UHGV virus genome: UHGV-0094961
Strand: one strand, 5' to 3'
Length of the DNA stretch: 38,929 nucleotides
Source of the DNA: a virus
The first letter of the stretch is position 1; each line of letters begins with the position of its first letter. Shown here piece by piece: positions 2,384 to 37,420 of this stretch. The notes under the pieces are model-generated. The model saw nothing but the letters and a program-made list of their open reading frames with translations, searched no databases and had not been told where the DNA came from. The translations under genes were made by a program, and so were the position numbers.

Positions 2384-2524
2384 GTGGTGCCACGGGGTGT
2401 GGTAGAAAGCAGTAGAGCGGGGAGACGAACGCGCCGCTAAAGACTACCTGGAGATGTACAATCTCTGGGTAAGTCGCAATCAGTAGTTAGAAGTACCGGA
2501 CATAACCAAGGAGACTAAGCGCCT

Positions 2525-4993
2525 ATGATTAGCGCCCTGAATACGGTTGTAGTACCAGAGGAAGCACTGGTGAAACGCCAGCTGGAGCTCGAAGAGACCT
2601 ATAAGATTCGCGGAATCGAGCGGGCACGTAAGCTGATTACGGACGCATTGCAGAACGGCGGGATTATGAACCTGCCGATGACGCAGCGTATGCTCACCTC
2701 GGCATATGAGGTGGCTGCTGCCGCTATCGACGAGATGCGAAACGTCAAAGTCCCGGGCATTGGTGGTAAGTACCGCCGGTTCCTGCGCTTAGTCCCCTTG
2801 GATGTCCTGACCACACTGAGCCTGTGCACAATGTTTGAAGCGTTTAGCGTCGCCCCCGGCGAGTCTGCTAGTCGCCGCCAGACTGCGCAGGCGGTAATGT
2901 CCGCACTGGGCCGGAACGTGCAGTCAGAGCTACTGGCTCTGCAGTTACGCAACGTAGCCCCAGCGTACATGGACCGAGTATATGAGTATCTCACAGAGCG
3001 CCGTACGAAGTCCCCTACGCACATCCTGCGTACGCTCCGTGCCAGTGCCGAGAATGTGCACTATGGGCACGAGCCTTGGACCAATGCCCAGAACATCTCC
3101 GTAGGGCGTCTGCTGTGTGCCGCGGTGTTTGAGACTGGCTTGTTCCAGTGGAAGACAGGTAGCGGGAACCTGAGCATGCTCTACCCGGCTGATGACGTTA
3201 TGGGGGCCTTCCAGAAACTGGTGGAATCTGCCGACACTGTAACGATGAAGCCGCCTATGCTGGTCCCCCCGGTGCAGCACACCACTATGTGGGATGGTGG
3301 GTACCTTACTCCTATCGACAACCGCGGTACGTACCATAACTCGCACATCGACCGCTCCAGGCTGCGTGAAGTGGCGGAAGCATTTAAGTCCGCGGATGGC
3401 ATCAAGAAGGCGCTTAATAAGGCACAGGAAACCCCATACCGTATTAATAAGCGCATACTGGAACTGGTGCAAGAAGCACGGGCCCTGGGTATTGGGATAG
3501 GTATGCCCCGCTCAATACCGGAGCCGAAGCCTGAGTGGTACTTGGATGGTGTACCAAAAGAGAACTACACCGAAGAAGAACTGGACCGCTTCGGTGAGTG
3601 GAAGACGCGTATGTCCCTGTGGTACAGTGCTGACCGTAAGCGTGTGTCGCAACTACGCAGCCTTCTGACTACGTTGGAGATGGCAGAGGAATTCAAAGAT
3701 GAGAAAGCCCTGTACTTCCCGACTTGTGTGGACTGGCGCTACCGCCTGTACTTCAAGTCCTCGTTGCACCCGCAGGGTTCTGATTTGCAGAAGGCTCTGC
3801 TGGAATTCGGTAGAGGTAAACCTCTTGGAGAGAGAGGGTTGTTCTGGCTTAAAGTGCATGTCGCCACTTGCTTTGGTTATGACAAAACCCTATTCGAAGA
3901 CCGCGCAGATTGGGTGGATAAAAATATGGCAGTTGTCCGCTCAGTTGCAGAGAATCCATTTGATTCGGACGCTTTTAAGCAGGCCGATTCACCGTGGTGT
4001 TTCTTGGCAGCAGTGCTCGACCTGGTGGCTGCTCTGGATTCTCCGTGCCCAGAAGAGTACATCTCCAGAACTCCGGTTGCTATGGACGCCACAAACTCAG
4101 GTGGACAGCACCTCTCAGCGCTCCTGAGAGACCCTGTAGGCGGTCGTCTGACGAACCTGTACTGGGAAGGTAACGACAAGAAAGCGGACCTGTACATGGA
4201 CGTGAAGCGCCGCACGGATGAGAAGGTGATACTGGACCTGGACAAGGAGGATTTCGTTATCCAGAGCACGTACTGGAGAGAGAACGAAATCACCCGCAGC
4301 ATGACCAAGCACCCAAGTATGACCTACTTCTACAGCGCCACGGTGCGTAGCTGCAGCGACTACATCTTTGAAGGCGCTTGCGCTGAGGGATACGAGGGTA
4401 CCGATACTAACAGTCTGTGGAACCTGTCGTGCTACCTGGCACCGCGTATGCGCGCCGCTATAGAGGAGGCAAACCCCGCTGCTGCGGCAGTTATGGGGTA
4501 CTTGCAGAATCTCGCTAGACGCGTACCGGCAAGCCAGCACCTGCAGTGGTATACGCCGCTGGGCGGGCTCGTAATGAACCGTTACACGCAGCGTGAAGAA
4601 GTGCGTGTACGTATTGACTGCATGAACCTGTCAGCGGTACTGGTACACAACCGGGACTTCAAAACTTGTAACAAGCGCAAGGCAGCCTCCGGGATTGCCC
4701 CAAACTTTGTGCATAGCCTGGACAGTACGCACTTGATGATGGTGCTCTGCGCTGCGGAGGGGTTGGACATTGTGCCTATTCACGACTCGCTGGCTACTCA
4801 CGCAGCTGACGTCGACACTATGCATAGGCACATCCGTGAGCAGTTTGTGCGTCTATATGAAGAGAATGACCTGCTTGGCGATATTACTCGGGCAGCGGCA
4901 GCAGCCGGGGCAGACTTGACGGACCTGGACATGCCAGAGGTGGGCACTTTGGACATCCGGCAAGTGCTAGAATCCCCGTTCTTCTTCTGCTAA
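2525..4993 (+). CDS. single-subunit DNA-directed RNA polymerase (T7-like RNAP)
   Basis: 822 aa; PVAMDATNSGGQHLSALLRD (T7 motif DGSCSGIQHFSAMLRD) and PIHDSLATH (T7 HDSFGT); AAGGAG RBS 11 nt upstream. Confidence 0.9.
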   Translation: MISALNTVVVPEEALVKRQLELEETYKIRGIERARKLITDALQNGGIMNLPMTQRMLTSAYEVAAAAIDEMRNVKVPGIGGKYRRFLRLVPLDVLTTLSLCTMFEAFSVAPGESASRRQTAQAVMSALGRNVQSELLALQLRNVAPAYMDRVYEYLTERRTKSPTHILRTLRASAENVHYGHEPWTNAQNISVGRLLCAAVFETGLFQWKTGSGNLSMLYPADDVMGAFQKLVESADTVTMKPPMLVPPVQHTTMWDGGYLTPIDNRGTYHNSHIDRSRLREVAEAFKSADGIKKALNKAQETPYRINKRILELVQEARALGIGIGMPRSIPEPKPEWYLDGVPKENYTEEELDRFGEWKTRMSLWYSADRKRVSQLRSLLTTLEMAEEFKDEKALYFPTCVDWRYRLYFKSSLHPQGSDLQKALLEFGRGKPLGERGLFWLKVHVATCFGYDKTLFEDRADWVDKNMAVVRSVAENPFDSDAFKQADSPWCFLAAVLDLVAALDSPCPEEYISRTPVAMDATNSGGQHLSALLRDPVGGRLTNLYWEGNDKKADLYMDVKRRTDEKVILDLDKEDFVIQSTYWRENEITRSMTKHPSMTYFYSATVRSCSDYIFEGACAEGYEGTDTNSLWNLSCYLAPRMRAAIEEANPAAAAVMGYLQNLARRVPASQHLQWYTPLGGLVMNRYTQREEVRVRIDCMNLSAVLVHNRDFKTCNKRKAASGIAPNFVHSLDSTHLMMVLCAAEGLDIVPIHDSLATHAADVDTMHRHIREQFVRLYEENDLLGDITRAAAAAGADLTDLDMPEVGTLDIRQVLESPFFFC

Positions 4994-5727: not shown

Positions 5728-7323
5728 TTGGAACAAAAAGCAACATTAGCAGAACTCTTTAAGAAGGACCAGGACGCGGGCGTCTTGGATGCCTCTGAGA
5801 AGTTCGCGCAGTGGACACTCAGCACTATCTTTACCCGGGACGATTCCCTGGACGGTAGACGCAGACCGCTAGAGCGTGACTACCAGAGCACCGGAGCGCA
5901 GCTGGTCAACACTGCAGCCACTAAGATTGTAGGCGCACTGTTCCCGCAAGGCGCTAGCTTCTTCCGGTTCTCCAAGAGTTCGGACCTGGACGAGTTCATT
6001 AGTTCGCTGGGTAGTGCAGCTACAGCAGAATCTAAGCTGGCCGAGGTCGAGAACACAGCGTCACAGAAAGTATTTGAGAAAGACGGTTATGCTGCGAAGT
6101 TGCAAGCTGTGAAGCTGCTGCTGGTTACAGGTAACGCGTTGGAGTATATTGATGAGCGGACAGGTAAATCCATCGTCTACTCAGTCCGTAACTTTACCGT
6201 TCGAAGGGATGGCAGCGGGAACGTCCTGCGACTCATTATCAGAGAGCGCGCAAGCGTCCAGGACCTGCCAGAGAGTTTCCAGAACACCTTCTACCGTGAC
6301 AAAGACCCATACGGCGACGTTGATATCTACACTGCCGCTTGTCGCAAGGTTAAGCGGACAGAGGAAGGCGTAGAGGTAGTAAGCTACGAGGTGTACCAAG
6401 AAGCAGACGGACACCACATTGGGGACAGCAGCACCTATCCTGAGCTGGAGCTTCCATACAACGTGCTGGTGTGGAACCTTGTTAGCGGTGAGCACTACGG
6501 ACGCGGCTTGGTAGAGGACTACGCCGGGGACTTCGCTAGATTATCAGTGCTGTCAGAAGCGTTAACTAACTACGAAGTTGAGTCTGCGCGGTTAATTCCG
6601 CTGGTTGACGCAAGCTCCGGGCTGGACGTGGACGAATTCGCAACGTCGGAGACGGGCGAGGCTGTGCAGGTGGGTGGTGGTGGTTCCAACGGGAACAACA
6701 AGTCCCCAGTCACTGCTTACGAGGGCGGCTCTGCCCAGAAGATTCAGTGGATTGCCAGCAACATTCAGATGCTCGAACAGAAACTGTCTCGTGCGTTTAT
6801 GTACACCGGTAACTCACGGCAAGGTGAGCGTGTCACGGCTTACGAGATTCGCCAGAATGCCAAAGAGGCGGAAGCCGCTATGGGCGGTGGGTTCAGTATC
6901 CTGAGCGACACCTGGCTGCGTAAGCTGGCGTACCTGTATACTGCACTGGTGTATCCTCGCTTTAAGCTTTATCTCAGCGAAGGTGTAGTGAACATCAACG
7001 TTACGGTGGGTACTTCTGCACTGGCTAAAGCCGCGGCGGCGGACAAGCTGTTAGAGGCGGCACAATCCATGCAGCTGGCTATCCCGGTGCTTGAGCAGAT
7101 TACTCCGCGCTTCAACAAAGATGCGTGCGTAGATTGGTACTTCGACGCCTACGGCATCGTCAGCGAGCCGTTCATGTACACCGAAGAGCAGCTGCAGCAG
7201 AAGCAACGGGTTCAGGATGCGTCTGCCGATGTATCCGCGGGTGTGGCGCAGGACCAACTCCAGGGCTTGACAGCAGCAGACCCGACAGTAGCAGGTAAGC
7301 AGCTGGGCTTATTACCAAGTTAA
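5728..7323 (+). CDS. head-tail connector (portal) protein
   Basis: 531 aa; TTG start with AAGGGGG RBS; NSRQGERVTAYEIRQ and LLLVTGNALEYI segments resemble T7 gp8 (QRTGERVTAEEIR, LVVAGNVLLYL). Confidence 0.85.
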   Translation: MEQKATLAELFKKDQDAGVLDASEKFAQWTLSTIFTRDDSLDGRRRPLERDYQSTGAQLVNTAATKIVGALFPQGASFFRFSKSSDLDEFISSLGSAATAESKLAEVENTASQKVFEKDGYAAKLQAVKLLLVTGNALEYIDERTGKSIVYSVRNFTVRRDGSGNVLRLIIRERASVQDLPESFQNTFYRDKDPYGDVDIYTAACRKVKRTEEGVEVVSYEVYQEADGHHIGDSSTYPELELPYNVLVWNLVSGEHYGRGLVEDYAGDFARLSVLSEALTNYEVESARLIPLVDASSGLDVDEFATSETGEAVQVGGGGSNGNNKSPVTAYEGGSAQKIQWIASNIQMLEQKLSRAFMYTGNSRQGERVTAYEIRQNAKEAEAAMGGGFSILSDTWLRKLAYLYTALVYPRFKLYLSEGVVNINVTVGTSALAKAAAADKLLEAAQSMQLAIPVLEQITPRFNKDACVDWYFDAYGIVSEPFMYTEEQLQQKQRVQDASADVSAGVAQDQLQGLTAADPTVAGKQLGLLPS

Positions 7324-7337
7324 CAACAGAGGCATAG

Positions 7338-8180
7338 ATGGATAACGTAGAAAACGGTCAGAACGTAGAAACTACACAGGTAGAGAACCAAGGTGGCCCT
7401 AAGATTCCGGGCCTAGGTGCTCCCCTTAGCGCCCCGAACAATCAAGGCGTGCAGGATGCACAGACCCCTACCCAGCAGCAACAGGGCAAAGACTCCCCTG
7501 ACCCTGCTAAGATTCCTCTGGATATCGAAGCCCTAAAAGCGGCCCCGGATAAGGGTGGCGATAGCGCTAAAGAGCAGCCCCAGGAGCTGGCTAAGACAGG
7601 CAACCCGACGATTGATGCCGGTGTAGCTATGTTGCAGAAAGTCTCTGGGTTAACTGACTCTGATATGGTGCGGGCACTTGGTAAGGCCCTGGAGTATCAG
7701 GACCCTAACCTAATCGATACGGCCTTCATTAAGGAACGTTTCGGAGAGCACGCTGCTTATGCAGAGTTGCTGGCTAAAGCGTACCTGGAAGACCAGGTTG
7801 GTCAAGCCACCAAAGCAGTACAAGAAGCTTACGATATCGTGGGCGGTAAGGAGAACTGGGAGGTAGCAGCGCAGCTGTTTAATTCCAAGGCCCCTGAACC
7901 TCTGCGTAACGCAGCTCGTGTACTCGCTAACTCGGGTGAGCTCAAGCAGGCCGCTGAGTTGGTAGCAAGCTTCTGCCGGGATATGGGTCTTATCAAGACA
8001 CAGAACCCAATGGTACGAGGCGTGGCCAGCAACAATGCACTGTCTGCTGCGGAATTCCGCGCAGAATATACCAAACTCCGTCAGGAAGCGGGCAACCGTA
8101 GCTTGGCGTCTCCACAGTTCAGTCAACGTTATAACGATTTGCTCGCACGCCGTGAAGCTGGTAAGCGCGTAGGTCTTTAA
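7338..8180 (+). CDS. capsid assembly scaffolding protein
   Basis: 280 aa acidic, low-complexity protein between portal and major capsid genes (T7 gp9 position); RBS present. Confidence 0.65.
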   Translation: MDNVENGQNVETTQVENQGGPKIPGLGAPLSAPNNQGVQDAQTPTQQQQGKDSPDPAKIPLDIEALKAAPDKGGDSAKEQPQELAKTGNPTIDAGVAMLQKVSGLTDSDMVRALGKALEYQDPNLIDTAFIKERFGEHAAYAELLAKAYLEDQVGQATKAVQEAYDIVGGKENWEVAAQLFNSKAPEPLRNAARVLANSGELKQAAELVASFCRDMGLIKTQNPMVRGVASNNALSAAEFRAEYTKLRQEAGNRSLASPQFSQRYNDLLARREAGKRVGL

Positions 8181-8205
8181 TTTTATTTATAAAGGAAACT
8201 AAAGC

Positions 8206-9225
8206 ATGGCCAACACTATTTATAATGGCAACCTGACTCGTCCGCACTGGGGCGGCGCAGACTCCGACGTAGACGTTCACCTGGAAGTGTACCAGAACGA
8301 AGTGGATACCCGCTTCCAGTACCGGGCTCTATTCCTGGGCCTCTCCAGCCAGCGCTCTATCAGCGGTTCCAACACCTACCGTATTGACCGACTGAACACC
8401 TCCTCGGTGAAAGGTCGTCGCTCCGGTGAGGCGCTGGATAGCACTCCGGTCCGTAACGATAAGATGATTATCGTGGTGGATACGGTGCTGTATATCCGTA
8501 ACCCGATTGACTATCAGGATGACTGGACCGGTCCGGACTTCCTGACCGAGATGGGTCAGAACAACGGCTCTGAGTTCGCAGAGGTCTTCGACCAGGCGCA
8601 CCTGATTCAGCTCATCAAGGGCCGTTCCTGGGTTGCGCCGGCGCACCTGAAACCGGCGTTCAACGACGGTATCGAGGTAGGCGCAGCTATCCTGGTTCCG
8701 GGTACCACCACCGCCACTCAGCTGACCCAGGCTGAGATGGAGGCGAACGCCATGAACATCAACCTGGCCCACAAGGCTGGTATTGACGAACTCATCAAGC
8801 GTAAGACCCCGCTGGCGGACATGATTACCCTGGTGGACGTCGATACCTATTCGCGTCTGCTGGAGCATCCGAAGCTCCTGAACCTGGACTTCGGCGCGTC
8901 CAACAATGATGGTTACAAAGACCGACGTGTAGTGAAGATGAACGGTGTGCCTGTAGTTGAGTGCACCGAGTTCCCGACCGCTGCTGGTACGCACCCGCTG
9001 GGCTCCGCTTACGCCGTCACCCCTGACGACGCGCTGTGCCGTATGGTGACTTTCAGCAAGTCCAAGACCCTGGTGACTGTTGAGGCTAAGCCGTTCACCT
9101 CCCGTATCTGGGATGATGAGCGAGAGTTCAGCAACGTGCTGGACTGCTACGCAATGTACAACATCGGTCTGCGTCGTCCGGACACCGCTGCAGTGACCAA
9201 GTTCACCTTCACCACCAAGTCCTAA
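8206..9225 (+). CDS. major capsid protein
   Basis: 339 aa; C-terminal CYAMYNIGLRRPDTAAVTKF resembles T7 gp10A AKYAMGHGGLRPEAAGAVVF; position and length canonical. Confidence 0.9.
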   Translation: MANTIYNGNLTRPHWGGADSDVDVHLEVYQNEVDTRFQYRALFLGLSSQRSISGSNTYRIDRLNTSSVKGRRSGEALDSTPVRNDKMIIVVDTVLYIRNPIDYQDDWTGPDFLTEMGQNNGSEFAEVFDQAHLIQLIKGRSWVAPAHLKPAFNDGIEVGAAILVPGTTTATQLTQAEMEANAMNINLAHKAGIDELIKRKTPLADMITLVDVDTYSRLLEHPKLLNLDFGASNNDGYKDRRVVKMNGVPVVECTEFPTAAGTHPLGSAYAVTPDDALCRMVTFSKSKTLVTVEAKPFTSRIWDDEREFSNVLDCYAMYNIGLRRPDTAAVTKFTFTTKS

Positions 9226-28260: not shown

Positions 28261-28266
28261 ACTTGA

Positions 28267-28309
28267 GGTAATACAGTACTATAAATGCTGTATTACCTTT
28301 TTTTTTTTT
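28267..28309 (+). terminator. rho-independent terminator
   Basis: Perfect 10-bp stem GGTAATACAG / CTGTATTACC with 11-nt loop followed by 12 T, directly after the HNH stop codon. Confidence 0.75.
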
Positions 28310-28446: not shown

Positions 28447-28475
28447 TTGACAATAGCAGTAAACGCTTTTATAGT
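28447..28475 (+). promoter_or_regulatory. near-consensus sigma70 promoter (TTGACA-17-TATAGT)
   Basis: Consensus -35, 17-bp spacer, -10 with one mismatch to TATAAT; in ORF-poor early region. Confidence 0.45.
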
Positions 28476-28997: not shown

Positions 28998-29582
28998 ATG
29001 ACTAATTCCACCAATTCAACAGGTAAAGTATTCAAGCTCACCGCTGCTGGCAGCATTCGTAAAGCGCTGGGCGACGTAGTGGAAGCAAAGCGTAACATCA
29101 CTATCAGCGCGCTCTTCCACGGCCTGATTAGCAGCAACGTATCATGGGCTACGGATATGCAGCGTAGCGATGCCGCTGACTTCGATATGGTGCTGCGTAC
29201 GCTGTTGCCTATCAAGCTCAACAAGGAGTCCGGCAAATATGGGTTCAACGCTAAGAAGTGCTATGTGTCGGCTGAAAAGCTGGGTATCGAACTGGACACT
29301 ATGCGTCTGGACTACAAACAAGCTGACAAGCAAGGCCGCGAAGTAATCGTAGCGAGGTTTTATAGCTCCTGTATGGCCCTGTACGCCGCCGAAGCAGAGC
29401 AGGTGAAGAATGACGCACTGGATGCCGATGCAGTGCGCCTGCAAGCGCTGGGGCGCGTTAAAAACGCTATTAAGAAGGCTAAAGAGACTGGCGTAAGCGA
29501 TGCTGACCTCGTGTCTATGCTGGTATCGCAAGGCGTGGACGTACGCGCTGTACTGGACGCAACTTTGAAGGCAGCGGCATGA
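28998..29582 (+). CDS. hypothetical early protein
   Basis: Start at ATG 28998 (AAAGGGG RBS) within track ORF 28947..29582; 194 aa; no recognisable motif. Confidence 0.5.
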   Translation: MTNSTNSTGKVFKLTAAGSIRKALGDVVEAKRNITISALFHGLISSNVSWATDMQRSDAADFDMVLRTLLPIKLNKESGKYGFNAKKCYVSAEKLGIELDTMRLDYKQADKQGREVIVARFYSSCMALYAAEAEQVKNDALDADAVRLQALGRVKNAIKKAKETGVSDADLVSMLVSQGVDVRAVLDATLKAAA

Positions 29583-30437: not shown

Positions 30438-30643
30438 TTAAGTATGACGTGTACAAGCGCCCGAACGGGCTGTTCTACCGAGTGGCGATACACGACATGT
30501 TCCATACTCGGGCGGAACTCTTTGCTCCCCATAGCAATGTGTGGGTTAAGTCTGCGCTAAAGGTGGGGGATCTGGTGTCCAGTCCCAAGTCGTCCCTGCT
30601 GGCCCGCAACGTGGTATTCAAGGACAGCGTATGCTCACAGTAG
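30434..30643 (+). CDS. hypothetical small protein
   Basis: 69 aa; AAGGGG RBS; ATGA coupling with upstream gene. Confidence 0.45.
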   Translation: MIKYDVYKRPNGLFYRVAIHDMFHTRAELFAPHSNVWVKSALKVGDLVSSPKSSLLARNVVFKDSVCSQ

Positions 30644-31119
30644 ACGAAACAGCGCTGCTGTGCTTGATTCAGGAATATCTCTACGTCGACGCCACCTCGA
30701 CCACTGGTTTGCGTTGGAAGAAAGCACCTAGAGCACGCACACCGGTTGGAGCGGAAGCGTTCACAAGCAAGAGTAACGGGGGCTACTACCACGGAATGCT
30801 TCGGGGCCGGGACTTAAAAGCTCATAGGGTGGTTTTCGCCCTTACCAACGGGTACTTTCCACCAGTAGTTGACCATATCAACGGGCAGCGGGATGATAAT
30901 CGTCCTGAAAACCTCCGCGCGACCACTGCCCTAATCAATAACCACAACCGAGAGGCGAAGGGGTATTACCCATTTCGAGGAGGATACATGGCCCGCATAG
31001 CAGCAAACGGGAAGCAGATGTATCTTGGGGTGTACCCCACAGAAAATGAAGCCCGCGAAGCATACTTAGCGGCTAAAGCTAGGCTGCACCCAACCACTCC
31101 TACTGGGAGGCTCACATGA
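30631..31119 (+). CDS. HNH endonuclease with AP2-like DNA-binding domain
   Basis: VDHINGQRDDNRPENLR (HNH motif) followed by GYYPFRGGYMARIAANGKQMYLGVYPTENEAREAY (AP2-like). Confidence 0.7.
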   Translation: MLTVDETALLCLIQEYLYVDATSTTGLRWKKAPRARTPVGAEAFTSKSNGGYYHGMLRGRDLKAHRVVFALTNGYFPPVVDHINGQRDDNRPENLRATTALINNHNREAKGYYPFRGGYMARIAANGKQMYLGVYPTENEAREAYLAAKARLHPTTPTGRLT

Positions 31120-31460
31120 TGACGGTAGATGAAGCTGCTGTTTTCATGTGGAAGCTGCTGGAAACGCAGGGCAAGTGCGGGTGCCCTTGGGGAACATTCA
31201 AAGAGGTTCCTAATGAACTCAAGCAAATCATACCGGTCGAGCGCAGACTCCTCCGTGTTCGTAGGCAGGACTCTACGGTGGTGCTCACAACCTATCGCGA
31301 GTATACAGAATCTGCCGCGCGGCAGTTGCAAGAGCACATTCAGTTCGATGTGGTTGCAGCACTGCTACGGTACGGGTATCGTGGAGCATATACAAGATTT
31401 AGGGCGGCAGTACGGGCATATTATAAGCAAGCGCAGATCGCTGCATGGTACGCACGCTGA
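31116..31460 (+). CDS. hypothetical protein
   Basis: 114 aa; GGGAGG RBS; protein-like composition, unlike the overlapping frame. Confidence 0.5.
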   Translation: MMTVDEAAVFMWKLLETQGKCGCPWGTFKEVPNELKQIIPVERRLLRVRRQDSTVVLTTYREYTESAARQLQEHIQFDVVAALLRYGYRGAYTRFRAAVRAYYKQAQIAAWYAR

Positions 31461-31509
31461 CTTAGTGGTTGGCGATGAACTCAAAGAACCTATTCAGGGG
31501 CAAACTAAA

Positions 31510-33186
31510 ATGCAAGAGACTAACACAGCACCTATCGAATGGAAAATCGTATTACCGGAAGGTGCAAACGCACTGCCGATTAAAGAATCAATGTATTCCA
31601 GCGGTGATTACTGGACCCCGTTCCAGGACTTGCAAATGCAAGGGGAGGACCATCCCCACACTGAGGGTCCGCTGCAGGTGCTTATGGGTCTCCGCACTGT
31701 CAGTGCGCACACTCCAGGCTTAGAGGTGACTATAGGCGGGGCACTGCACCCAGAGTATCGCGAATCAACGATGACGCTCGGCCCGTTGCAAAAGGTGGAC
31801 CTGTACCGGTCCGGAACTTTCTGCGAACTCTTTGAACCGGTGCGAATCACCATAGACAGCAAGTTCTGGGAACGCCGCCGCGACTTCTATGAGGGCGAGG
31901 ATGTAGTGGTTGAGCGCGTAGTTGCTTGCGTCGAAGAATTCACAGGTTACAAGGTGCACAAGCAGGCCGTGCAGTTATTTGAGCGCATCATGCTTGCACC
32001 AGAAGAGCAGCAGCGCCGCTTATGCACTGGCTACGATTACGGCCGCCACGCCCGCGATGGCAACTTAGCTGCGCTGCTCATGAAGTTGCACGGATTCATA
32101 GTATCTAGATTCGCCGTGCCATTGGGCTTTGGTTTCCGCAACGGTGAGCCTATCGTGATGCTGGGGCAGCCGCGGATGCACAAGGACTTCGCCGCAGTTA
32201 CCGAGTACCGTTGTGTGGAGATGCGCGTAGGTAAGTGGCTCGCTAACTACTACGGCAATGGCGTAGACTTCCGCGATGCTATCGAAGACCTCAAGGCTAT
32301 GAACGTAGAGCCTACAACGTACCTGTGCAAGACCGAGCAGGAATGGTACGACTCCTACGAGAATGGCCCGGGTAGCTGCATGAGTGGATACTCATTTGAG
32401 CATAGCCCGGTGCGGGTGTATGCTACTACCAGCCACGGGCTGCCGGACAACGGGCTGCGCCTGTTCATCCAGTACACCGGGGAACTGTTCGGGGATGACT
32501 TCGAAGTGCAGGCACGGGCAATCGTTAACACAGAAACTAACGAGTACGTCCGCGCTTACGGCGACGCTGCGGATGCAATCCTGCGGGGGCATGGGTACAC
32601 CAAAAACATTGAGTGTCTCGAAGGGGTAATGCTGGCGCGAATACCGCACCCAACATACAACGGCGCAGTGCTGATGCCATACCTAGATAGCAGCCAGTGC
32701 GGCGTAGATGAGTATGGGGATGATGCCTTTGTAATCCGTGATGCTTATGAGTACGAGGCACAAGACTCAGAAGGATACATCTACGTAGGCACTGAGTCTG
32801 CTGGGTGCTGCTGCTGTGAATGTCGCTACTCTGTAGATGACATGCAGGAGACCGCAGATGGTGATATGGTCTGCGACGGCTGCGTAGAAGAAGGGGATTT
32901 TGTGTACGTAGTTGGGCGTGATGGTCTGCATAATCGCTGGAGCTGCACCTGGTCTGATTACCACGACGCCTATGTATACGACGAGGACATAGAGCGCTGC
33001 GAAGTAGAGGGTGTAGTGCACGACCAAGAGGAACTGGTGTTTGCACAGGACCGGCAAGTGCTTATTGAACACGCAGAAGAACACCCAGTGCACGGGTTAA
33101 TTCTCACTGAGCATGCAGCTGATTGCTTGGGAGAGAAGTACCTGGGAAACGATGAAGATGAAGAAGAAGCAGAGGAGGCAGCTTAA
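31510..33186 (+). CDS. large acidic early protein with Cys cluster, unknown function
   Basis: Long ORF (track 31129..33186); first about 380 nt in this frame is Ser/Arg/Cys-rich and overlaps a better ORF, so start placed at ATG 31510 (uncertain); contains SAGCCCCECRYS...MVCDGC and acidic tail DEDEEEAEEAA. Confidence 0.45.
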   Translation: MQETNTAPIEWKIVLPEGANALPIKESMYSSGDYWTPFQDLQMQGEDHPHTEGPLQVLMGLRTVSAHTPGLEVTIGGALHPEYRESTMTLGPLQKVDLYRSGTFCELFEPVRITIDSKFWERRRDFYEGEDVVVERVVACVEEFTGYKVHKQAVQLFERIMLAPEEQQRRLCTGYDYGRHARDGNLAALLMKLHGFIVSRFAVPLGFGFRNGEPIVMLGQPRMHKDFAAVTEYRCVEMRVGKWLANYYGNGVDFRDAIEDLKAMNVEPTTYLCKTEQEWYDSYENGPGSCMSGYSFEHSPVRVYATTSHGLPDNGLRLFIQYTGELFGDDFEVQARAIVNTETNEYVRAYGDAADAILRGHGYTKNIECLEGVMLARIPHPTYNGAVLMPYLDSSQCGVDEYGDDAFVIRDAYEYEAQDSEGYIYVGTESAGCCCCECRYSVDDMQETADGDMVCDGCVEEGDFVYVVGRDGLHNRWSCTWSDYHDAYVYDEDIERCEVEGVVHDQEELVFAQDRQVLIEHAEEHPVHGLILTEHAADCLGEKYLGNDEDEEEAEEAA

Positions 33187-34232
33187 TGTTCTTGAATCCG
33201 CATGGGATTGATATGCAGCTGCTCTTGCAGATACTGCGAACGCACCGGCCTAGCTGGGCAAGCACTAAGTGGTTCGATCCGCTGCTTATGCAGGCGCTGG
33301 GTAGTGGTATGCACTACGTAAAGGATAAGCACGGGAACTACTTCGTGCTGGTGGGGGACTCAGAGCAAAGTGATGTAGCGTTTACGTCTCATCTCGATAC
33401 GGTGGCCCGCCCAACCAGCGCTGCACCGGACGTCGGTTGCACTAACAAGGGCGTGCTGTTCGTAAAGAATCCGCAACAAGCTGACTGCTTGGGGGCGGAC
33501 TGCGGTGCCGGTGTCTACCTGATGCTGGAGATGCTGCGGCGGGGTGTGCACGGACGCTACTGCTTCTTCGTGGATGAGGAGGTTGGCTGCGAAGGCAGCG
33601 CTGCATCGGTCAAGGATGACACTGGATTTTGGACTGGTGTCAAGGCGATGATTAGCTTTGACCGCCGCGGAGATGGTATCATTACGCACCAGCGGTACAT
33701 GCGCTGCTGCTCTGATACCTTTGCCAAGACTCTGGCAGAGCGCCTAGGACGCACGGAGCAGCACTTACAAAAGGGTGTGTATACTGACTCAGCCGAGTTC
33801 GTCGGCATCATCCCTGAGTGCACCAACGTCGGTGTAGGGTACATGCACGAGCACACTCCGGATGAGGTGCTGGACCTGAACATCCTGGGGAAAGTGCTTG
33901 AGCGGGTACTGCAAGATGGTACGTTCTCGCACCTTCCGATTGAGCGGGACCCGAAGGTAGTAGAGCCGGACCAATGGCTCTCAGCATCGACGCTCAGTTT
34001 ACGGCAGCCATGGGATATGCCGCCAGACGAGGACCCGCAATTGCTGGCAGCGTTCCGTGTAGTGTCGCAGCTTTCTAAACAACAACTGGTTAGCTGGGTG
34101 CAGGAGAATCCAGAGAAGGCGGCGGAGTACATAATGGTGTTCTCCGATTACGGCTTTAAAGAAGAACTGATTGAATTAGGCACCCGAGTCGTAGAAGACT
34201 GGGGTGGATACGATAATATTGTGGAGGGTTAA
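33186..34232 (+). CDS. putative dinuclear-zinc metallopeptidase-like protein (MH-clan, M20/M28/M42-like)
   Basis: Motifs HLDTV (His69), GADCGAG (Asp105), VDEEVG (Glu131-132), later YMHEHTPDE, with spacing very similar to the metal ligands of DapE/ArgE-type peptidases; AGGAGG RBS. Confidence 0.45.
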   Translation: MFLNPHGIDMQLLLQILRTHRPSWASTKWFDPLLMQALGSGMHYVKDKHGNYFVLVGDSEQSDVAFTSHLDTVARPTSAAPDVGCTNKGVLFVKNPQQADCLGADCGAGVYLMLEMLRRGVHGRYCFFVDEEVGCEGSAASVKDDTGFWTGVKAMISFDRRGDGIITHQRYMRCCSDTFAKTLAERLGRTEQHLQKGVYTDSAEFVGIIPECTNVGVGYMHEHTPDEVLDLNILGKVLERVLQDGTFSHLPIERDPKVVEPDQWLSASTLSLRQPWDMPPDEDPQLLAAFRVVSQLSKQQLVSWVQENPEKAAEYIMVFSDYGFKEELIELGTRVVEDWGGYDNIVEG

Positions 34233-34234
34233 TT

Positions 34235-34693
34235 ATGCCTAATTTTAAAGTTGGTGATAAAGTTGTGCGTACAGTTGAGAGCAAAACGTTCTGGCTCATT
34301 CAAGGCGTTAAGAATTATTACATTGTAACGGATGTTGGCGCAGGTGGTTACTGGTTACAGTTGGATGGGGTGCGAGATAAGGAGGACCCCCGTCCGTGGT
34401 ACGCGCCAAACTTCGAACTGTACCAAGAGCCCGAGGACGAGGAGCTGCCGCCGGTTCCAGCCAGTGTAACCTACGTGAACTCCAAGCGCGATTCTGGAAA
34501 TGACCAGCGCCTAGTCCTTGATAAGGACAACGGTGAAGGGGAAGGATTAATGTACATCGGAGTAATCCCTCGCAAGGGAAGTACTCGAGCACAGATGGAG
34601 ATTGGGATTAACATCGACCCTGATTCAGCCCTGCAGTTGGCGCACGACCTGCGCCGCATGGCTATGGATATCAAACGTAAGGAGAAAGCATAA
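34235..34693 (+). CDS. hypothetical protein
   Basis: 152 aa; GGAGGG RBS; N-terminal KVGDKVVR motif also seen at start of ORF 1922. Confidence 0.5.
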   Translation: MPNFKVGDKVVRTVESKTFWLIQGVKNYYIVTDVGAGGYWLQLDGVRDKEDPRPWYAPNFELYQEPEDEELPPVPASVTYVNSKRDSGNDQRLVLDKDNGEGEGLMYIGVIPRKGSTRAQMEIGINIDPDSALQLAHDLRRMAMDIKRKEKA

Positions 34694-34881
34694 TGAAAGT
34701 AAAAGCTCTAGAAAATAGCCCAGAGAACTTTCTGTTCACGGACAGAACCTATACCTTAATTAACGTAAAGGATGGTCGCGCCACTATAAAAGATGATTTA
34801 ACCAATTTAACTACGGTGGTTAAAGTGGAGCGAATTTTACTCACAGAGGGTAACGCTACCGATGGACCAGCCCTGGCTTAG
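34693..34881 (+). CDS. hypothetical small protein
   Basis: 62 aa; start ATG overlaps upstream stop codon (translational coupling). Confidence 0.4.
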   Translation: MKVKALENSPENFLFTDRTYTLINVKDGRATIKDDLTNLTTVVKVERILLTEGNATDGPALA

Positions 34882-36979: not shown

Positions 36980-37420
36980 ATGGAAATGAGTGAGTGTATC
37001 GACCACGGACGTTCGCGCAGCCTATCCCCAGAAGGCTACGCCTTGGTAGCTAAACCCGGAGTTCGCAGTCGTTGCGTACACCTGCACAGGCTGGTGCTGG
37101 CGGAGAAGTTAGGGGTGCCGCTTAAAGCTCTAGATGGAGTAGTTGTCAGGCACACTTGCGACAACCCACGGTGCATCAACCCAGAGCACCTAATACCTGG
37201 AACCCTAGCAGATAACAACAAGGACCGAGCAGAGCGCGGCCGTAGTGCTAAGCGGGTGCCTAGCCGCCAACGCCTAACTCCTAAAGACTGTGAAGATATC
37301 TGTGCCAAGCATACGCCGAGGATTTATGGCGTTACCCATCTGGCCCGCGAGTACGGCGTAGACACTAACGTCATATACAAAGTGCTAAGAGGAGAGTACC
37401 CTTGTCAACAACCAGTATAA
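36980..37420 (+). CDS. HNH homing endonuclease (paralog of 1114..1521)
   Basis: HTCDNPRCINPEHL and N-terminal CIDHGR shared with ORF 1114; GGAGGG RBS; sits between helicase and DNA polymerase genes. Confidence 0.75.
   Translation: MEMSECIDHGRSRSLSPEGYALVAKPGVRSRCVHLHRLVLAEKLGVPLKALDGVVVRHTCDNPRCINPEHLIPGTLADNNKDRAERGRSAKRVPSRQRLTPKDCEDICAKHTPRIYGVTHLAREYGVDTNVIYKVLRGEYPCQQPV

Follow-up and report, generated by a model that had tools for sequence, protein, structure and literature searches.

An early protein of KP34-like Klebsiella phages with a conserved Ser-Cys core, an acidic zinc-ribbon module and an M28 peptidase partner: a candidate enzyme-like effector

The DNA analysed here (hereafter the window) is a stretch of 38,929 nucleotides from the virus genome UHGV-0094961, given as one strand from 5' to 3', and the subject of this work is one of its genes, at positions 31510-33186 on the + strand, whose product is orthologous to KP34 gp10. 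Most of a Drulisvirus genome (KP34-like; Autographiviridae, Slopekvirinae) is contained in the 38.9-kb window, in circularly permuted form. When the region was compared with phage records by megablast, 242 records were matched with a best identity of 96%, and 229 of them are Klebsiella phages; the gene is present in these records at 80-99% nucleotide identity. KP34p10 has been described as a core gene of the genus (PMC4411677). In databases the gene is known only as a hypothetical protein, apart from one "mimic" and two "structural" labels, and in the literature searched we found no work on the function of KP34 gp10 or of proteins related to it. What is added here is a domain map, a weakly GNAT-like fold with a signature of its own, a superfamily link to jumbo phages, a pairing with a peptidase gene, a conserved acidic module and an Ala-Ala end. 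The features of the gene and its partner are as follows (aa, amino acids; pLDDT, predicted local distance difference test).

31510-33186, + strand: target coding sequence, 558 aa, KP34 gp10 orthologue, PHROG 6980; stop codon TAA at 33184-33186
31510-31821, + strand: N-terminal region (aa 1-104), mostly low-confidence or disordered, found in the KP34-like clade only; AlphaFold2 pLDDT below 50 at aa 1-30, 40-51 and 68-104
31822-32109, + strand: helical region (aa 105-200); AlphaFold2 helices at aa 103-120, 134-145, 151-161, 166-173 and 183-198
32191-32784, + strand: conserved core with a GNAT-like alpha/beta fold (aa 228-425), also holding the near-invariant Y283, Y304 and Y350
32365-32382, + strand: GPGSCM motif (aa 286-291; GPxSCM in the family), within the alpha1-alpha2 loop of the core
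32806-32883, + strand: zinc ribbon CxxC-X18-CxxC (CCCCEC...CDGC; aa 433-458), predicted
32884-33150, + strand: hyper-acidic short beta-hairpins and one helix (aa 459-547); AlphaFold2 strands at aa 464-532, pLDDT 83-98
33151-33183, + strand: poly-acidic tail DEDEEEAEEAA with an Ala-Ala-COOH end (aa 548-558)
33172-33178, + strand: GAGGAGG within the tail codons (Glu-Glu-Ala), the Shine-Dalgarno sequence of the downstream M28 gene
33186-34232, + strand: M28-family di-zinc metallopeptidase, 348 aa (PF04389, E=3.5e-5, 24.1 bits against a curated cut-off of 21.3; PHROG 4191, "peptidase")

The protein contains 102 Asp and Glu against 44 Lys and Arg, giving a net charge of -58 and a pI of 4.5, and it has 18 Cys. 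A preliminary description, made from the letters of the window alone, had read about 558 aa, a CCCCEC...CDGC cluster and a DEDEEEAEEAA terminus from this open reading frame (ORF), and all of these are in place (CCCCEC at aa 433-438, CDGC at aa 455-458). Compared with the Kp_Pokalde_001 genome, to which the gene is 88% identical at the DNA level, 129 of the 193 substitutions fall at third codon positions, which indicates that the gene is real and under purifying selection.

Remote homology, the check that the preliminary description had proposed, led to no known enzyme family. The protein has no match in Pfam, NCBIfam, PADLOC or the PDB sequences, and among PHROGs it matches only families of unknown function; profiles of its family, run against Pfam, NCBIfam and the PDB sequences, gave zinc-finger noise only. 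Relatives are nevertheless numerous, as a HMMER scan of 1.84 billion cluster representatives returned 284 at E<=1e-3, most of which match only aa ~232-475. In an alignment of 82 members, most of them 20-30% identical to the window protein, S289, C290, Y304, R336, Y350 and D393 are invariant, and G286, M291, G351, P390 and Y391 are nearly so, together with four cysteines (C433, C436, C455 and C458). The Ser, Cys, Arg and Asp (S289, C290, R336 and D393) are still invariant when the alignment is enlarged to 120 sequences. The family signature reads GPxSCM ... HPVRVYA ... ARAxVN ... YVRxYGD ... GY ... MPYLDG ... CxxC ... CxxC, and within the core its elements are GPxSCM with the invariant Ser-Cys, two Arg, a Tyr and PYxD. 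The strongest conservation thus lies in a near-neutral core of ~200 aa and not in the acidic region, and the invariant polar residues of this core (Ser-Cys, Arg, Tyr and Asp) form the pattern of an active or ligand site.

An AlphaFold2 model based on the 82-sequence alignment has a mean pLDDT of 81, with 88-98 across aa 270-540 and 95.9 for the core. It places an alpha/beta domain at aa 203-410, followed by short beta-hairpins that contain the zinc ribbon (aa 423-532) and an acidic tail modelled as a low-confidence helix; at the other end, the alignment columns of aa 1-104 are mostly gaps in distant homologues. A comparison of the model with the PDB by Foldseek returned nothing significant. 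The order of secondary-structure elements in the modelled core, beta1-alpha1-alpha2-beta2-beta3-beta4-alpha3-beta5, is that of the GNAT core. The GNAT superfamily fold covers acetyltransferases, FemA/FemX, ATE1 and PanZ. There are also clear differences: the motif Q/RxxGxG/A, which binds the pyrophosphate of acetyl-coenzyme A (acetyl-CoA) at beta4-alpha3, is absent, and the family has YGDxxxLxxxLxxxGY in its place (YGDAADAILRGHGY in the window); helix alpha4 and strands beta6-beta7 are not recognisable; and the invariant Ser-Cys dyad is not a GNAT feature. Among Pfam and NCBIfam acetyltransferase models, none matches the window protein, and one of the 82 relatives matches Acetyltransf_6 at E=0.053. 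Because the CoA motif is absent and no acetyltransferase model gives a meaningful match, we treat the core as a weak likeness to the GNAT fold and not as membership of the GNAT enzymes. Placed on this topology, the Ser-Cys pair belongs to the loop that joins alpha1 and alpha2, R336 to beta3, Y350 to the end of beta4 and D393 to a loop that follows beta5, and we infer that the invariant residues map to the regions lining the active-site cleft of GNAT proteins.

The core is not confined to podophages. In a 735-kb uncultured phage (LR756501), two ORFs near an M28 gene match the family hidden Markov model (HMM) through the core motifs, and a search with one of these ORFs led to a family in jumbo phages (alignment A5). 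When the jumbo-phage and podophage families were aligned with hhalign, a probability of 98.4% was obtained (E=4e-15, 211 columns), with the motifs GRYL/IGRF, SCM, GRAxV(N/W), (D)RxY and PYxD in register. The core defines a large, unannotated phage superfamily that extends from podophages to megaphages. What differs is the C-terminal part: the proteins of jumbo phages with this SCM core carry zinc fingers of the DnaJ_CXXCXGXG or BSD2_CRD type, or Lys-rich tails, whereas those of podophages carry an acidic zinc ribbon. Hyper-acidity and the Ala-Ala end are both specific to the podophage branch and are lacking in the jumbo-phage proteins, which are equally uncharacterised. A constant core with a variable C-terminal zinc-finger module is the usual pattern of an effector domain with exchangeable targeting domains.

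In the LR756501 record (locus L017), the two SCM-core ORFs are paralogous (1137-2597 and 6334-7785, both on the - strand), lack the zinc ribbon and lie within 8 kb of the M28-like gene (8001-8654, + strand); five M28-like places occur in the record in all. The neighbours of other jumbo-phage relatives vary. One relative (L019, 4142-7608) is next to the NAD-salvage genes NAMPT/NAPRTase and a NUDIX gene; another (L020, 4366-5905 and 9790-11169) is next to an NMN transporter gene, AAA_28 and a PcfJ-family gene; and a third (L021) has neither NAD-salvage nor PcfJ neighbours, only a cation-efflux zinc transporter gene. A link with NAD salvage was accordingly set aside, since it is seen in two contexts and not in the third. 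A relationship with PcfJ (PF14284) was also rejected: hhalign against the PcfJ protein of L020 gave probabilities of 0.5% for alignment A5 and 0.1% for alignment A1, and there was no match to the Pfam PcfJ model.

Downstream of the core, the Cys cluster noticed in the preliminary description is present, but it is conserved only in part. Only C433, C436, C455 and C458 are conserved (in 74-78 of the 82 members), C434 and C438 are not, and position 435 is Cys in only 28 of the 82; the cluster therefore reduces to a CxxC-X18-CxxC zinc ribbon, an ordinary one with predicted metal binding. AlphaFold2 places strands around these cysteines, and the PDB matches of the family profiles, all weak, are to zinc-finger and LIM-type chains.

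From aa 421 to its end, the window protein has a net charge of -33 over 138 residues. In the family, the C-terminal module has a median net charge per residue of -0.187, and 84% of members lie below -0.1; the medians elsewhere are -0.038 for the core and -0.031 for the N-terminal part. Acidity is thus, across the aligned sequences, a conserved property that is concentrated in the C-terminal third.

The preliminary description had placed the protein among large, acidic, early phage proteins, which often serve in host takeover or anti-defence, some of them as DNA mimics or inhibitors of nucleic-acid enzymes. Size, acidity, early-operon position and the lack of a known enzyme family hold up; the specific mimic or inhibitor idea finds no support. 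According to this explanation, the acidic C-terminal module would imitate the phosphate backbone of nucleic acid and, as an anti-restriction or anti-defence inhibitor, block a DNA-binding enzyme of the host, for example a component of a BREX or type I restriction-modification system. The charge density of aa 421-558 is compatible with a mimic-type acidic surface, the C-terminal third carries ~-0.19 to -0.24 net charge per residue in 84% of members, and the gene sits in an early operon. In early position, and in having one strongly negative region of a charge density similar to that of Ocr, the protein resembles T7 Ocr and ArdA. However, it is three to five times larger than these known mimics and has no sequence or fold match to them, no match in Pfam or PADLOC, and a multi-domain build with a zinc ribbon. 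The strongest conservation is in the near-neutral, GNAT-like core with its invariant Ser-Cys, Arg, Tyr and Asp; non-acidic relatives in jumbo phages keep the core; a mimic would not explain the near-constant peptidase partner; and the gene is the ninth annotated from the left end in Kp_Pokalde_001, not the first to enter. One GenBank record does label an orthologue "putative DNA mimic protein". Taken together, we regard a mimic as an unlikely account of the whole protein, and as a possible one for its C-terminal module.

The last two residues of the protein are a feature of their own. Across Drulisvirus, 119 of 120 clusters end in Ala-Ala, while the acidic run in front of it varies in length and composition. 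Among 123 near-full-length representatives with pairwise identity below 50%, 44 end in Ala-Ala and 61 in Ala, where composition would give an expectation of ~0.7 for Ala-Ala. The explanation that this end is a by-product of the ribosome-binding site (RBS) or of the gene overlap holds only in part. The Ala-Ala end is also present with a next gene that begins 26 nt upstream of the stop codon or 87 nt downstream of it, and the Ala codons differ synonymously among relatives; because of these synonymous changes, and because the end occurs both with and without overlap, the constraint acts at the protein level.

The ...LAA-COOH end of the ssrA tag is a recognition signal for ClpX. Compared with this tag and with C-motif-1 degrons of ClpX, the Ala-Ala-COOH of the target follows acidic or polar residues, and position -3 is mostly Glu (39 of 123; Glu also in the window), with Leu in 16 of 123. 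The tail is encoded by the gene and not added by tmRNA, and its recognition by ClpX is putative. A second, unrelated early protein of the window (28998-29582, + strand, 194 aa, PHROG 5277, unknown function) also ends in Ala-Ala (...LKAAA); its homologue in Phimunavirus (L012, 1062-1631) is 50% identical, has a different tail and ends in ...PDAA. Another early ORF, at 34693-34881, ends in ...GPALA. The early proteins of these phages may thus share a C-terminal signal of ClpX type.

Such an end also allows for a quite different function, that of a non-catalytic adaptor or decoy for a host AAA+ protease. The Ala-Ala would then dock on ClpX or ClpA, and the protein would either deliver bound host proteins to degradation in the manner of an antizyme or saturate the protease, protecting phage proteins or blocking protease-dependent toxin-antitoxin defences. 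This would fit the strong protein-level conservation of Ala-Ala-COOH, its occurrence on a second unrelated early family in two genera, and the existence of non-enzymatic adaptors among GNAT-like folds. But ~60% of the distant representatives lack Ala-Ala, the residue at -3 is usually Glu instead of Leu, and an invariant Ser-Cys, Arg and Asp would be unusual in a pure adaptor, so we give the adaptor only a small chance of being correct.

Directly behind the target lies the M28 gene, the start codon of which includes the last base of the target stop codon (TAATG). Its residues H69, D71, D105, E131, E132, D159 and H223 are invariant in eight phage homologues of 31-40% identity and in one close relative; since these are the metal and catalytic residues, the peptidase looks active. 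In nearly all lineages whose sequence reaches far enough downstream, an M28 homologue directly follows the target homologue; this is so in the window and in the loci L001, L003, L006, L007/L008, L009, L010 (Maculvirus), L012 (Phimunavirus) and L013. The stop codon overlaps the start codon of M28 in most of them; in L005 the two genes are 1.3 kb apart. In the phage collection, the numbers of records with the target and with the M28 gene are identical (Klebsiella 232, Vibrio 42, Escherichia 10 and Shigella 4). Apart from jumbo-phage relatives, only one of the loci that carry the close target family (L004) has no M28 gene. In that locus (2520-4932), a frameshift behind the first CxxC divides the target itself, and in Pseudomonas phage YMC11/06/C171_PPU_BP (Kantovirus; L011, 5272-6074), M28 is downstream but annotated as two coding sequences; both are signs of decay of the module.

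Given this pairing, the target could also be a regulatory or chaperone-like partner of M28 (an activator, inhibitor, metallochaperone or substrate presenter) that has no chemistry of its own. The stop/start overlap in most lineages suggests coupled translation, the record counts match, and some relatives have DnaJ-type zinc fingers, which bind polypeptides. Against this, the jumbo-phage relatives keep the core with no M28 nearby, and distant M28 homologues in Thermus and Cellulophaga phages have no detectable partner nearby. Each of the two genes occurs without the other, so the core protein and the M28 enzyme can each work alone, and a purely regulatory role seems to us rather improbable. In Thermus phage P74-26 (L016, 5914-6798 and 7878-10390), the distant M28 homologue is near two genes whose products are annotated as ATP-dependent protease and as von Willebrand factor type A protein, and no SCM-core partner was detected near it. 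In Cellulophaga phage Calle_1 (L018, 4199-4558 and 5812-6882), it lies ~1.2 kb from a phage tmRNA gene, in a neighbourhood of tRNA genes that also has an RtcB ligase gene; the locus showed no SCM-core gene. A phage tmRNA at this place is curious beside the ssrA-like Ala-Ala ends of the podophage family.

The position of the gene pair in the genome is equally regular. The gene order is that of annotated relatives: small early genes with an optional HNH endonuclease gene, a 114-aa ORF, the target, the "peptidase", a small ORF, the primase and the helicase. In all contexts compared, the target and M28 pair is just upstream of primase and helicase. The upstream features that bear on expression and on the start of the gene are the following.

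28265-28299, + strand: strong intrinsic terminator, a 14-bp stem followed by a run of 10 T
28447-28475, + strand: near-consensus sigma-70 promoter (TTGACA-17-TATAGT, 11/12 matches), heading the early operon that includes the target
31116-31460, + strand: 114-aa ORF, PHROG 6167, the true coding frame of a stretch wrongly joined to the target by long gene calls
31496-31500, + strand: Shine-Dalgarno-like AGGGG, 9 nt before the ATG at 31510; an RBS is annotated at the equivalent place in Kp_Pokalde_001

The promoter comes directly after the terminator, and together they show where the early region begins in the permuted window. As the target is ~3 kb downstream of this promoter and a scan of the + strand from promoter to target showed no terminator-like site, its position makes it part of an early operon that is predicted to be transcribed by the host. 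The HNH endonuclease gene (30631-31119, + strand) lies immediately before the 114-aa ORF. Because some Drulisvirus genomes have it (Kp_Pokalde_001) while the closest relative, RCIP0106, does not, it resembles an inserted mobile homing-endonuclease gene. Two other ORFs of the window, at 1114-1521 and 36980-37420, share a CIDHGR motif close to the N-terminus.

Proximity to primase and helicase, together with the acidic tail and zinc ribbon, would also suit a replisome accessory factor that binds the polymerase, primase or helicase of the phage by its tail, in the way known from T7 gp2.5 and gp4. The target shares with these T7 proteins an acidic C-terminal tail and a gene located beside replication genes; it differs in having a GNAT-like core, with no OB or other DNA-binding fold found, and an Ala-Ala end instead of the aromatic residue that is essential in T7. 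Its overall net charge of -58 does not favour this role, nor does the fact that the jumbo-phage relatives are not beside replication genes, and we consider it very unlikely. Even less can be said for a virion structural protein, as which the gene is labelled ("putative structural protein") in Kp_Pokalde_001 and in Vibrio phage vB_VpP_DE18. The gene is in the early operon, far from the structural module; its core is enzyme-like; and its product is not among the KP34-group virion proteins that were correlated with bands in sodium dodecyl sulfate-polyacrylamide gel electrophoresis (PMC4411677). A virion role is thus extremely improbable. For "DNA mimic" and "structural" alike, no support was found, and none of these records gives evidence for its label.

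As for the start codon, which the preliminary description had called uncertain because of a weak RBS, the ATG at 31510 is well supported by the sequence context. The AGGGG upstream of it makes the RBS adequate, and a start equivalent to 31510 is annotated in two GenBank records, while an in-frame GTG at 31465 has no Shine-Dalgarno sequence. The target frame is open upstream to 31129 (127 codons), overlapping the 114-aa ORF, and many public gene calls (610-656 aa) take in this extension, as do the first 98 positions of PHROG 6980. With that profile, the window protein has a full-length match (E=0, 1233 bits, aa 1-557 against profile positions 99-654; family without assigned function). In the overlapping stretch, however, substitutions peak at the third position of the 114-aa frame (20/34 and 16/30), which is position 2 of the target frame. 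The extension is therefore non-coding with respect to the target, and the longer gene models of the databases and the PHROG profile (610-685 aa) are ruled out.

How, then, might the protein work? Our preferred reading, which we put forward tentatively from alignments and a predicted structure, is that of an enzyme-like effector that acts early, is targeted by an acidic zinc-finger module, works together with the peptidase and is not a simple DNA mimic; every functional step of it is one that we infer. The core would provide a catalytic or ligand-binding pocket, in which the Cys may serve as nucleophile or acyl carrier. The C-terminal zinc-finger module would be the targeting part; in the podophage branch, where it is polyanionic, it would recruit a basic partner, probably a host or phage protein that binds nucleic acid, and in the jumbo-phage relatives it would be replaced by zinc fingers of the DnaJ type, which bind polypeptides. 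The M28 exopeptidase would share a protein or peptide substrate with the core or act on the product. Finally, the Ala-Ala C-terminus may be a degron or docking signal of ssrA/ClpX type that limits the protein to early infection.

Several points weigh against this enzyme-like reading. GNAT-like folds may be non-catalytic, as in PanZ and antizyme. With the GNAT CoA motif absent, no acyl donor can be named, and the spatial clustering of the invariant residues is deduced only from the topology of the model. None of the three sampled contexts of jumbo-phage relatives has an M28 neighbour, so the peptidase is not needed for core function in general. The tail codons for Glu-Glu-Ala double as the Shine-Dalgarno sequence of M28, which explains part of the tail composition. 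In addition, the strength of the degron is uncertain, since position -3 is usually Glu and not the Leu of ssrA.

A more specific proposal can be built on the same observations, and it is doubtful as a whole. It holds that the SCM core represents a new phage enzyme superfamily with a GNAT-derived fold that has lost CoA binding, gained a catalytic Ser-Cys dyad and been fused to interchangeable zinc-finger modules for targeting. In KP34-like phages, a two-enzyme module formed with M28 would capture a basic host protein by means of the polyanionic part and edit or trim it covalently at the switch from early gene expression to DNA replication, its lifetime being set by the Ala-Ala degron. What probability remains belongs to functions outside the readings set out here.

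Among candidates for phage therapy against Klebsiella, the KP34-like Drulisvirus phages are some of the most used, and KP34 gp10 and its peptidase partner have had no known role. With this analysis, a hypothetical protein becomes a defined target that has domain boundaries, key residues (C290, S289, R336, D393, the zinc cysteines and Ala-Ala), a partner and a candidate host protease. The pairing and the degron-like ends would be unexpected to a specialist, and the occurrence of Ala-Ala on two unrelated early proteins suggests that host proteolysis of ClpX type may time early functions in these phages. Should the core prove to be an enzyme, it would be the founder of a family whose divergent members number in the hundreds and span phage types, and a new chemistry of host takeover would come to light.

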